A stretch of DNA of 64,000 nucleotides. It comes from Escherichia coli (GTDB lineage: Bacteria > Pseudomonadota > Gammaproteobacteria > Enterobacterales > Enterobacteriaceae). The stretch lies in assembly GCF_045037415.1 (NCBI RefSeq), contig NZ_CP173438.1. One strand, written 5' to 3'. The notes under the pieces were generated by a model, which worked only from the letters and a program-made list of their open reading frames with translations, did not search any database and was not told the DNA's origin. A program made the position numbers and the translations under genes. Position 1 is the first letter of the stretch. The number at the start of each line of letters is the position of its first letter. Shown here piece by piece: positions 53,979 through 58,419 of this stretch.

Positions 53979-54593
53979 TTATCCTTCGATAAAAGCCATC
54001 CCTGTGAACGTTCGTCGCGGGTTGCCACGTTCAATCTGGTGATGGAACATTCGCCGCTGCGATTTCAGCGCCGCGCTATTTTCCTGTTGCTGTTGTTCCA
54101 GCTTCCAGGCAATCAGTAATCGCGCCAGCCGTTTGTTAGCATGCTGACTGCGCTCTGACTGAACCTTCACGCTAATACCGGATGCCAGATGCGTGGCGCG
54201 TACCGCCGAGTCGGTTTTATTGACATGTTGACCGCCCGGCCCCGACGAACGCAGCGTCTCATAACGGATTGCATCCGATTGTTCCTGCTCATCAGCGGTA
54301 AAACGCCCAATGCCCAGAAACCAGTTTTTGCGCCCATGATGAGGCCGATACGGACTCGGACAAATCCACTGAATAGTGCCGCACCAGCTTTCGCTTAGAG
54401 CCCATGCGTTATCGCCATCCAGAGAAATCAGCGCCGAACGCAGTGTGTCAGAGTAGCGACCCGTTTCTGTTTCCAGCACCGTTACCGCGACGTCCTGTCG
54501 GGTAGCTTCTTTAATCAGCCTGTCCAGTGCTTTTTTCACTGCGAGACAACATTCTTCCGGCCCCTGAGCAGAGGAGAGTTGTAGCAAGATCAT
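53979..54593 (-). CDS. prfH: Peptide chain release factor homolog PrfH, full length (204 aa) with GGQ motif
   Basis: [16 protein letters not shown] motif; start ATG 54593 overlaps the stop of the upstream rtcB-like gene (ATGA). Confidence 0.75.
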
Positions 54594-55741
54594 CCTTTTT
54601 TCCCTCCACTGTTTTTGAGCGTCAGCACCGGGCGCAGTCGCGCGACAGGAATAATTAACCCAGCCAGCACCAGACATTGCACCACGCTTTCAGCCGATTT
54701 ATAGGCTTGTGGCGCTTCTTCAAAGATGAGTTGTTTATCGCGACAAATTACCCGACTGCCAAGTTCAGTCCGCGAGAGTTGCGTCGCCGTGTATTTCGCT
54801 GCCAGACGCCCTTTACACTCGGTGCGCCCCCATTTACGCCCCGCCCCATGCGCCAGCGAGTGGAGCGTTTTTTCGTTCGCAACAGGTTTAACCAGCCAGG
54901 AGTAATCGCCGCGTGAACCGGGAATAATCACCAGACCGTTGTCATCCGGCGTGGCGCCTTTACGATGCAACCAGCCCTGTTGATCGCCGATTTGGCACGC
55001 GCTAACAAAGTTATGCGCCACATCCAGAACCGGACTTCCGGTGGCCTTAACTTGTTGCATTATGCGCAAAGCGATCAGCTGGCGATTAATACGCGCAAAC
55101 GCCAGCGCATCGTCATGTTCCGCAATATACCGTAGCGCGTCGTCACTGCCTTCAGGCAAACCATGATGCGAAAACGAGGCAATATGCCGCTGTAAAATAG
55201 ACTGCCCCAATCCCCTCGAGCCGCTATGAACCAGTAGTTGCAGATGCTGCGCATCCAGACCAGCCCGTGCAAACAGTTCCGCGTCGATAATTTGATCAAT
55301 CTGTTGCAGTTCTGCGAAGTGGTTACCGCCACCGATGGAGCCAAGCGAGTTGTGCCACGGATGCTGTGCAAATGCTGACGGCAGGTTTTCCTCCAGCCAG
55401 CTTTCTTCAGCAACGTCATCCAGATCTGATAATCGCTTTTCAAACTTATCGGCGTTGTATTTGCGAGCGAGAATATCTGTTTGCCATAGCGCCATGCCGC
55501 AGCCGATATCATTGCCGACCAGTGCCGGGTAAAAACGACCAACAGAGAAGAACGCTGCGCCAATCGGGTAGCCGCGTCCGGGATGTAAATCTGGCATCCC
55601 CACAACGCGCTGCATGTTGGGTAAATTTGCCGTGGTGTGTAATTGTTGGATCGCTAAACTCTCGATCCACAGGTCATCAGATGCGATGGTAAATACCGCA
55701 TCGGATAAGGGACGAATATATTTGCCCATGTACCATTCCAT
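54590..55741 (-). CDS. RtcB-family RNA ligase paralog (partner of PrfH; intact counterpart of the K-12 ykfJ fragment)
   Basis: RtcB-like sequence with metal-binding His/Cys context ([17 protein letters not shown]); translationally coupled to prfH. Confidence 0.75.
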
Positions 55742-55918
55742 TTATGAATAAAAATCAGGAAATGGCAGACGAATCCAGGGCAAGAAAAAAGAATTAATCC
55801 TGGAAAGGTCTGCAAAGAGTCATTGATAAAGGATTTGTCATGATTTACCTCCTTGCAGTTTGTGGAATAAGAAAACGCGCACATACTAGACGGGCGTTAT
55901 TTTCATTGCAAGCTGGAT

Positions 55919-56371
55919 TTAATGTTGCGGTTTATATCGCATATAAAAATTAGTAAACCACGTTCCCCGGCATTCAACGCGCTGCTGCTTAACTGTCTGA
56001 AAACCATAACGTTCAAAAAAGGGTTTTGCGGTTATGCTGGCGTCCACCGTAAGTTCGGATTCAGACTTAATCAATGGTTTTAACAAAGCGCTGGCAACTC
56101 CGCGTCGGGTGTATTCCGGTTCAACAAATAACATATCGATATAATGTCCAATGCGGGTAATAAAACCAACCGGTTGTGCATTAATAACTGCAACCCGCAC
56201 TTGTGATTTCGCGAGTTTCTCCTTCCAGCGAGATTCGTCAATCTGCGCCCAGGCGGCAATTTGCTGTGGAGAATAGTGCTGACTCGCCGTCATCGTAACA
56301 GCTCGAAGGAAAATAGCGCATAGTTGCTGAAAATCACCAGGCTGATAGTTTCTTATTTGTATGTTATTCAT
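55919..56371 (-). CDS. yafP: GNAT-family acetyltransferase YafP (150 aa)
   Basis: GNAT fold motifs; ATG overlaps the dinB stop (ATGA). Confidence 0.8.
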
Positions 56372-57423
56372 AATCCCAGCACCAGTTGTCTTTCCATTTG
56401 CGGGTCAAGCAACGTCACATGCAGCCCCACCAGTCGCACACCGCGCCCGCCGCGGCGTTCATCCCAGGTTTTACGCGCGGTGGCGATTAGATCAGATTTA
56501 TTCAGCCGCGGCCAGACGTGTTCCTGGGTGGTTTGCTGAAAATCGTCGAACTTTAATTTCACCCCCTGGCGGGCAATCAGCAAATCAGGTTTTACCTTTG
56601 CCAAACGACGCTCCAGTTCAGGGTAAAGCCGCTCGATGATCGCTTCACATTCAGACCAGTGATGAATATCTTCCGCCATCGTACGTTCTACACCGACGGA
56701 TTTTCGCAACCTTTCGCTGTTAACGTCGCGTTCGTCAATGCCCTGACTACGCTCCCACAAAATGCGGCCAAATTTGCCAAAGCGTTTAAGCAGCATCACC
56801 AGATCACACTTTTGCACATCACCGCAGGTCCGCAGCCCCATCGCTTCCAGTTTTGCCGCCGAGACTTTGCCGACGCCGGGAATTTTTGCCAGCGGTAAGG
56901 TTTGTAAAAATGTCGGAACTTCTGCCGGCGTAATCACAAACTGGCCGTTGGGTTTATTCATGTCGGAGGCGATTTTGGCGAGAAACTTTACTGGTGCCAC
57001 GCCCGCAGACGCCGTCAGTTGCAGCTCGTTGAAGATCGTCTGGCGGATTTCCTGGGCGATGAGGGTCGCAGAACCGTGGCAATGGACGCTATCGGTGACA
57101 TCGAGATAGGCTTCATCCAGTGATAACGGTTCAATGCGCGAGGTATAGCGCGAGAAAATTTCGCGGATATGATTTGAGGCTTCTTTGTAGGCGTCAAAGC
57201 GCCCTGGAAGCAAGGTGAGATGCGGGCATAATTTGAGCGCCATCCCTGTCGGCATAGCGCTACGTACGCCAAATTTACGCGCGGGATAATTGGCGGTGCT
57301 GATCACCCCCCGTCGTTCGCGGCTGCCGCCAATAGCAATAGGGATATCGCGCAGGGCGGGATTGTCGCGCATCTCCACCGCTGCGAAAAAGCAGTCCATA
57401 TCCACATGAATGATTTTACGCAT
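56368..57423 (-). CDS. dinB: DNA polymerase IV (Y-family) DinB (351 aa)
   Basis: [33 protein letters not shown]... Y-family signature. Confidence 0.9.
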
Positions 57424-57437
57424 TGCTCACCTCTCAA

Positions 57438-57457
57438 TACTGGTAAAGTATACAGTG
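57438..57457 (-). promoter_or_regulatory. LexA (SOS) box upstream of dinB: CACTGTATACTTTACCAGTA on the minus strand
   Basis: CTGT-N8-ACAG-type palindrome 15-35 nt upstream of the dinB start. Confidence 0.65.
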
Positions 57458-57493
57458 ATTTCAGGGTTTGAGAAATGCGTAAAGATTCAGCAT

Positions 57494-58417
57494 TTAACGC
57501 GTTCGCTGCGAAAGCACCTGCTGCTTATCCAGCTTTTGCACCAGCGGCTGCACCACTTTATCCCCATGCTGACCAAAGTATTGATACAGCGTATCGGACG
57601 CACTTTTGGTCAGCACCATAATCTCAATGCGCCGGTTGCCCGCGCTTTGCGGATTTTTGGCATCCAGCAGCATCTGGTCCGCCATTGCACTTACCTGCAT
57701 CACTTTATCTTCCGGCATTCCGGCCTCTTCCAGCACCCGACGAGCTGAAAGCGCGCGATCGCCCGAAAGGTTCCAGTTGTTGTAGATATTGTTTTTGTAG
57801 GCCATCGCATCGGTATGCCCGGTAATAATAATTTTGTTATCGAGCGAGTCGAACACTGGCGCAAGCTCCACCAGCAAAGTTTTAAAGAACGGCATAATCT
57901 TCGCGCTGCCGCGTTCGAACATATTGCGGTTCTGGTCGTCTTTAATCAGCACGCGTAATCCCTGGGGAACAATCTCCATCTCCAGATTCGCTTCCATATG
58001 CGCATCACGGGCGATGGTATTGATACTGGTTGCCAGCTCGCCAAGCTCGGTGGCGGATTTCTTCTTCAGCAGCGCCGTTTTCTCGTTGACGTCGCGCGCT
58101 TTTTTCTCCGTCTCTTCCGGCACCGCCACGGTGGCAGGTTTTGGCGGATGAGACGGGCTGATTTTATTTAACGGCGACAACCCACCACCGTTAAAAATCG
58201 ACTGCCCGTGCAGCGCGGCGATAATGCTTTCACGCTCGGATTTACTGACGCTGTTGACAATCCACAGCGTCATAAATAGCGCCATCATTGCCAAAGTAAA
58301 GTCGGCGAACGCCACCTTCCACGCCCCGCCGTGATGCCCGGCATGATTCTTTTTGATCTGCCGCCGGACGATGGTGGTTTTTGCCCCACGTTCGCGGTGG
58401 TTGCCCGTCTTTCTCAT
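57494..58417 (-). CDS. lafU: Lateral-flagellar (Flag-2) stator protein LafU (MotB-like, OmpA-type C-terminus)
   Basis: MotB-like TM/plug region (WKVAFADFTLAMMALFMTLW) and OmpA-like peptidoglycan-binding C-terminus; start taken at MRKTGNH; adjacent to dinB as expected for Flag-2. Confidence 0.7.
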   Translation of the reverse strand: MRKTGNHRERGAKTTIVRRQIKKNHAGHHGGAWKVAFADFTLAMMALFMTLWIVNSVSKSERESIIAALHGQSIFNGGGLSPLNKISPSHPPKPATVAVPEETEKKARDVNEKTALLKKKSATELGELATSINTIARDAHMEANLEMEIVPQGLRVLIKDDQNRNMFERGSAKIMPFFKTLLVELAPVFDSLDNKIIITGHTDAMAYKNNIYNNWNLSGDRALSARRVLEEAGMPEDKVMQVSAMADQMLLDAKNPQSAGNRRIEIMVLTKSASDTLYQYFGQHGDKVVQPLVQKLDKQQVLSQRTR

Positions 58418-58419
58418 GC

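Follow-up and report, generated by a model that had tools for sequence, protein, structure and literature searches.

The dinB-yafP operon of an Escherichia coli chromosomal segment: a known two-gene SOS allele and the possible history of its missing yafN-yafO genes

In E. coli K-12 the SOS-regulated gene dinB is separated from yafP by the toxin-antitoxin genes yafN and yafO (together yafNO), whereas in the 64,000-nucleotide stretch of E. coli DNA analysed here (the window) dinB appears to run directly into yafP. This locus raises the questions of whether the short arrangement is genuine, how yafP would be expressed from it, and whether the toxin-antitoxin genes were lost from this lineage or never entered it. 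The two genes of the window are head-to-tail open reading frames on the minus strand, both of them intact. According to the list of open reading frames and the family profiles, dinB (57423..56368) encodes DNA polymerase IV (Pol IV) of 351 aa, and yafP (56371..55919) encodes a GNAT-family N-acetyltransferase of 150 aa; the proteins are 99.4% (DinB) and 94.7% (YafP) identical in amino acid sequence to those of K-12. DinB belongs to the NCBIfam equivalog NF002677 (546 bits, cutoff 256), matches the Pfam families IMS, IMS_HHH and IMS_C, and retains residues D8, F13, Y79, D103 and E104, as well as the C-terminal QLVLGL. In E. coli Pol IV, D8, D103 and E104 are the catalytic carboxylates, the retained residues include the steric gate, and QLVLGL is the beta-clamp-binding motif. 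YafP belongs to the equivalog NF007338 (326 bits, cutoff 146), and its GNAT domain was recognised by Pfam Acetyltransf_10 (1.9e-19) as well as by Acetyltransf_7 and Acetyltransf_1; by its fold and acetyl-CoA-binding domain it is a predicted GNAT N-acetyltransferase.

The two genes meet at the sequence ATTATGA (56368..56374, minus strand), in which the dinB stop codon TGA and the yafP start codon ATG overlap as ATGA. The plus strand reads TCAT at 56368-56371, i.e. ATGA on the coding strand, so the stop-start overlap described in the original prediction is correct. Across the junction the coding strand reads ...CTGGGATTATGAATAAC..., and all six further two-gene alleles of E. coli that were checked have the same junction as the window, GGGATTATGAATAAC. 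The ATGA overlap is also present in Escherichia sp. MOD1-EC7003, a member of a cryptic clade, and in E. marmotae (GGGGTTATGAATAAC). ATTATGA occurs once at the window locus, whereas four-gene alleles carry one copy on each side of yafNO.

Alignment of the locus to its counterpart in the K-12 lineage (L001) left one clean gap of 759 bp, located exactly at the junction; L001 is annotated as dinB-yafN-yafO-yafP, in agreement with the placement of yafNO between dinB and yafP that the original prediction gave for K-12. Homologues of the missing genes were then sought in the whole 64 kb. The best E-value obtained with K-12 YafN and YafO in tblastn was 0.79, and blastn with the 755-bp yafNO segment (word size 7) gave at best an E-value of 0.011, for a 20-nt match at 11.7 kb. 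Inside 55919-57423, the interval in which yafN or yafO homology would speak against direct coupling of the two genes, neither search returned a match, even at chance level. No diverged or displaced yafNO elsewhere in the window was found by the same whole-window tblastn and blastn (word size 7) searches. The type II YafN-YafO toxin-antitoxin system, with a PhdYeFM-type antitoxin gene followed by a gene of a YafO-family toxin, is thus not encoded in the 64-kb window. The single 759-bp gap and the negative searches bear out the proposal that dinB is coupled directly to yafP, and its description as a shorter variant of the K-12 SOS operon is backed by the alignment, by the searches and by the RefSeq annotation of identical loci elsewhere. 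An assembly or sequencing artefact could in principle produce the same picture, but this is extremely improbable, since both reading frames are intact and a 200-bp junction probe found the contiguous dinB-yafP junction in 2,566 of the 5,426 complete RefSeq E. coli genomes (about 47%; the count may contain up to about 16 three-gene or truncated alleles, as the search joins pieces less than 600 bp apart), including loci 100% identical to that of the window from independently sequenced strains.

The arrangement is therefore a common polymorphism, and it is an already known one, which the original prediction did not mention. The yafNO segment was found in 2,847 of the 5,426 genomes, and between them the two classes cover practically all genomes that bear the locus. 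The two-gene operon was published by Gutierrez et al. 2011 (NAR 39:4192; PMC3105422), who reported only dinB and yafP in 40% of sequenced E. coli and in 50% of the ECOR strains, and described the two genes of this form as "always fused", with an ATGA overlap and an invariably identical junction. In the same study (PMC3105422), strains of group A mostly had four genes, all B1 strains had two, and groups B2 and D were mixed. CFT073 was selected by these authors for its two-gene operon, and a YafP-YFP fusion in this strain was made in stationary phase and upon mitomycin C treatment; nitroaromatic genotoxins were also found to be more cytotoxic with YafP, except where Pol IV was present (PMC3105422). 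In the published view, such genotoxins are modified by YafP and the lesions that result are bypassed by Pol IV, a partnership that explains the lasting linkage of dinB and yafP.

The operon of the window is, with high confidence, the two-gene allele of the LexA-controlled dinB operon in the same form as in CFT073: the Pol IV gene comes first, yafP adjoins it with an ATGA overlap, yafNO is absent and a LexA box lies upstream. Compared with the published description of CFT073, the gene content, the overlap and the LexA-controlled promoter are the same, and no material difference was noticed, the window carrying its own mosaic of SNPs. The four-gene operon of K-12 (McKenzie et al. 2003) has in common with the window the promoter, the LexA box, dinB, yafP, and the flanking lafU and rtcB/prfH/pepD. 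It differs in an extra 759 bp with yafN, for the antitoxin, and yafO, for the mRNA interferase, as well as, according to PMC7781912 (citing McKenzie 2003), a second promoter upstream of yafN. Moreover, yafP of K-12 begins 9 nt after the yafO stop codon instead of overlapping dinB, and rtcB and prfH of K-12 are pseudogenes, whereas the copies in the window are intact.

Expression of the operon would start at a sigma-70 promoter-like site, TTCTCA-16-TATACT (57474..57447, minus strand; -35 TTCTCA, 16-nt spacer, -10 TATACT), which was located by a consensus scan with 9/12 matches and has the same sequence in K-12; its function as a promoter is deduced from these hexamers. The -10 hexamer is overlapped by a LexA (SOS) box, identified by motif match as the 20-mer CACTGTATACTTTACCAGTA (57457..57438, minus strand). 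The core of the box, ACTGTATACTTTACCAGT (57456..57439, minus strand), is the sole ACTGTAT-N7-CAGT match in the window, where 0.02 would be expected by chance, and the 20-mer agrees with the K-12 dinB box at 19/20 positions, the last base being A here and G in K-12. The LexA box that had been noted upstream of dinB is thereby confirmed. With one promoter and its -10 element inside the LexA box, the operon would be repressed until DNA damage inactivates LexA, as judged here from the sequence. LexA/SOS control of the operon has been demonstrated experimentally for CFT073 and K-12 (for induction in CFT073, see PMC3105422).

At the level of translation the two genes differ. A strong Shine-Dalgarno sequence, GAGAGGTGAG (57426..57435, minus strand), precedes dinB, with a predicted duplex energy of -10.1 kcal/mol with the 3' end of 16S rRNA, while the pairing upstream of yafP is not convincing (-5.5 kcal/mol and bulged in the window, +0.4 in K-12). 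An AUGA stop-start overlap is the classic layout for termination-reinitiation. Since yafP has no Shine-Dalgarno sequence of its own and its AUG overlaps the dinB UGA, YafP is most likely produced by this mechanism: ribosomes ending at the dinB stop codon would reinitiate on the yafP AUG, a translational coupling for which no frameshift is needed. The yafP gene of K-12 is likewise without a Shine-Dalgarno sequence and begins 9 nt after the yafO stop, so its expression probably relies on upstream translation in the long as well as the short operon. Gutierrez et al. 2011 (PMC3105422) proposed a different route, in which YafP of the overlapping arrangement is made through programmed translational frameshifting out of the dinB frame, because they saw no Shine-Dalgarno sequence and yafP is out of frame with dinB; the anti-Shine-Dalgarno complementarity of yafP in the window is likewise weak. 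However, the same feature is found in K-12. Furthermore, yafP has its own ATG overlapping the dinB stop, a frameshift would give a DinB-YafP fusion and not a separate 150-aa YafP, no slippery heptamer is evident in CTGGGATTATGAATAAC, and ATGA overlaps are, as stated in PMC3105422 itself, the commonest gene overlap in E. coli. Programmed frameshifting is thus very unlikely, and termination-reinitiation is the reading adopted here.

Without the 759-bp cassette, the strain would have, in comparison with K-12, neither an SOS-tied YafO ribosome-dependent mRNA interferase nor the YafN antitoxin. The second promoter upstream of yafN is missing as well, and expression of yafP would therefore be governed by the promoter and the translation of dinB alone. 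The practical use of the result lies in these two expectations, i.e. an SOS response of the window strain that lacks the YafO mRNA interferase, and a yafP gene tied only to the promoter and translation of dinB; as a discovery it carries little weight, because the allele is common and published.

How the short form arose can be approached through the sequences that flank the cassette. In 6/6 four-gene alleles ATTATGA is present on both sides of it (GGGATTATGA directly followed by TGTATAC... at one end and ...TATATTATGA directly followed by ATAAC at the other). The direct repeat is hence 7 bp long, and not 4 bp as given by Gutierrez et al. 2011 (PMC3105422), and by bracketing the cassette it offers a simple route to recurrent precise deletion. 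Strain N58, which has the four-gene operon, is identical to the window over the final 359 nt of dinB and the initial 216 nt of yafP, and the two have in common a 3' haplotype of dinB that was not seen in the other alleles of the comparison, which covered 13 sampled alleles, a small subset of the diversity. Four haplotypes can be told apart by two SNPs, one 30 nt upstream of the junction and the other 36 nt downstream of it, and three of them (3/4) were seen with both operon forms; the six other E. coli two-gene alleles with the same junction differ from the window by up to about 4% in dinB. The occurrence of one junction on diverged dinB genes, the shared flanking haplotypes and the N58 match support repeated events, and the existence of a four-gene allele with identical flanks favours loss. 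Precise deletion between the ATTATGA repeats is consequently the most likely history of the window lineage, a conclusion that we hold with somewhat better than even confidence.

The locus is also a recombination mosaic, as seen when window positions 56372-57423 were compared with L008 and L009. An O18:H1 strain has the same yafP as the window (100% identity) but a dinB with 35 differences, and the 3' half of the window's dinB is identical to N58, while the middle of the gene (positions 120-693) differs from N58 at 21 sites.

Several alleles appear to be caught in the course of cassette decay. A premature stop codon in yafO next to an intact yafN was found in PKF4 (L010, 683-1081), where yafO is annotated as a pseudogene, and in SCPM-O-B-8794 (L004, about 3950), where CAG TAA in place of CAT AAA removes the last 13 residues of YafO and yafN is again intact. 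Such nonsense alleles fit a decay of the cassette in which the toxin gene goes first. A third operon form, dinB-yafN-yafP, occurs in Escherichia sp. E1V33 (L003, 3621-4000) and E. coli GF43 (L017, 1552-1877); in both, a deletion at a short TTAT microhomology has removed yafO beyond about its eighth codon, and yafN is an orphan antitoxin gene. Among the 5,426 complete genomes, no more than about 16 have a truncated cassette. Together, the partial-deletion and nonsense intermediates show that loss of yafNO is ongoing. A further variant was noticed among two-gene alleles: in E. coli BS-04 (L015, 1270-1300) the junction is shorter by 6 nt (…GACAACGTTGATTATGAAT), the C-terminus of DinB reads …MERQR in place of …MERQLVLGL and so lacks the beta-clamp-binding motif, and yafP starts 2 nt past the stop codon. 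This junction was seen in one genome only and could be a sequencing error.

A probable deletion in the window lineage leaves the question of which form is the older one. In Citrobacter amalonaticus, Klebsiella aerogenes, Kluyvera intermedia (YafP 57-60% identical) and E. marmotae (YafP 81-84%), dinB is followed by a YafP orthologue with no toxin-antitoxin genes, as in the window. A CTGTAT…CAG LexA-type box lies upstream in all four taxa, and the chromosomal neighbourhood shared with the window includes pepD, gpt and frsA, with or without rtcB-prfH. The junctions of these taxa have a spacer of 2-5 nt instead of the 4-nt overlap of the window, except for E. marmotae, which has ATGA. On the other hand, the four-gene order dinB-yafN-yafO-yafP is found at the same position in two gut-metagenome scaffolds (L023/L024, 2097-4358), which are Pseudocitrobacter-like, a genus label taken from the cluster members. 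Their dinB-yafN spacer is homologous to that of E. coli, and their nucleotide identity to K-12 is 78.6% for yafN, 76.9% for yafO and 80.3% for dinB. Both the two-gene and the four-gene forms are therefore old, each being present in more than one genus. The operon of E. whittamii is of the four-gene type, as is that of E. fergusonii according to PMC3105422 alone; a scan of genome contigs for exact peptide words of YafP returned four Escherichia loci and one unrelated planctomycete GNAT protein, with no E. fergusonii or E. albertii among them. More distant yafNO pairs (about 66% nucleotide identity) are located in unrelated loci of Klebsiella variicola and of a Pectobacteriaceae genome.

Within Escherichia the divergence of the cassette is shallow. 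Between K-12 and E. whittamii, yafNO has 10/693 differences compared with 95/1509 in dinB and yafP (Fisher p = 7e-8), and the mean dS among six alleles is 0.05 for yafO and 0.12 for yafN against 0.23 for dinB and 0.17 for yafP, so that the flanks have diverged 3-5 times as much as yafNO. Between genera, by comparison, yafNO is as diverged as dinB, and slow intrinsic evolution therefore does not explain the shallow divergence in Escherichia; recent lateral spread of one yafNO cassette lineage within the genus is likelier.

These observations give some room to a history opposite to deletion, in which the two-gene form of the window is a retained ancestral state, yafNO having entered an old dinB-yafP core and spreading in Escherichia by homologous recombination in the flanks. 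It would account for the occurrence of dinB-yafP without yafNO, in the same neighbourhood and behind a LexA box, in E. marmotae, C. amalonaticus, K. aerogenes and Kluyvera intermedia, for the homologues of yafNO in unrelated loci of K. variicola and the Pectobacteriaceae genome, for the AT-rich composition of the cassette (41.8% GC, compared with 53.9% in dinB), and for a cassette that is 3-5 times less diverged than its flanks in Escherichia, yet diverged like dinB between genera. Nevertheless, the Pseudocitrobacter operon, with yafNO diverged about as much as dinB, means that the four-gene form is old too, and four genes are also present in E. whittamii and, per PMC3105422, in E. fergusonii. 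The presence of yafNO in N58 on flanks identical to those of the window is likewise difficult to obtain by gain, which would need both crossovers to fall in a stretch of about 30 nt by the junction that is invariant in the sampled E. coli, and the partial-deletion and nonsense intermediates indicate that loss is ongoing. Retention of the ancestral state in the window is accordingly a doubtful possibility, though not a negligible one, and deletion between the ATTATGA repeats is kept as the preferred history of this lineage.

For the locus as a whole, it may be suggested, tentatively and with a little less than even confidence, that dinB-yafP is an ancient core common to several genera and that yafNO acts as a selfish cassette which may or may not occupy one fixed site, its lateral sweeps through homologous recombination being opposed by recurrent precise excision at the ATTATGA repeats and by toxin-first decay. 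The published picture is that of a four-gene ancestor with three deletions; if the optional-cassette reading were true, that picture would be too simple, and alleles like that of the window would be a mix of retained and reverted ones. The additions made here to the literature are the two-gene and four-gene forms in other genera, the shallow divergence of yafNO in Escherichia and the decay intermediates. Together with the 7-bp repeat, they may be modestly useful for studies on the turnover of chromosomal toxin-antitoxin cassettes; the observations on polarity and cassette dynamics, which come from sequence comparison, should be regarded as a modest by-product of the analysis.

Downstream of yafP, no intrinsic terminator was found on the coding strand by a pattern scan, and folding of 55845-55925 gave a best structure that does not surpass shuffled sequence (z = -0.68). 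The next genes on the same strand are rtcB2 (379 aa; NF007153, 642 bits) and prfH (TIGR03072, 328 bits), which are intact, overlap by 4 nt and occupy 53979-55729 (minus strand), immediately after dinB-yafP and without a convincing terminator in the interval. RtcB2-PrfH is known to repair ribosomes damaged by colicin E3 (PMC9304027, PMC9223846), and no mention of dinB, yafP or a link to the SOS response is made in PMC9223846. A 15-codon open reading frame, MTNPLSMTLCRPFQD (55794-55841, minus strand), is located between yafP and rtcB, and 5 nt ahead of it stands the consensus Shine-Dalgarno sequence AAGGAGGT. The encoded peptide is the same in K-12 and in seven further loci of E. coli, cryptic-clade Escherichia and E. 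whittamii, with one substitution in SCPM-O-B-8794; this putative gene might encode a leader peptide for the rtcB-prfH ribosome-repair genes.

On the other side of the operon, an IS1 element (about 59287-60061; insA 59336-59611, insB-like gene 59633-60022) is inserted in the Flag-2 cluster, between motA/lafT, a stator gene of the lateral flagella, and a gene for a FliA-like sigma factor, and probably disrupts the expression of the lafT-lafU stator genes. The same insertion, with 100% identity over 6.6 kb, is present in Ecol_AZ146, THO-003, p4A and at least nine other genomes, and is absent in DETEC-E480. Over the whole of 57400-64000 the window matches Ecol_AZ146 and no fewer than 11 further genomes with 100% identity; an island of Ecol_AZ146 has been treated among the pathogenicity islands of the ST131 complex (PMC8097792). 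Beyond the thrW tRNA gene, positions 1-45994 of the window are not collinear with Ecol_AZ146, which has a myo-inositol island there. The best matches of 22000-46000 are annotated as fdeC, the ecp fimbrial operon, a type I restriction-modification system and an integrase, and no genome matches this part of the window in one piece. The strain from which the window derives probably belongs to phylogroup B2 and is ST131-like.
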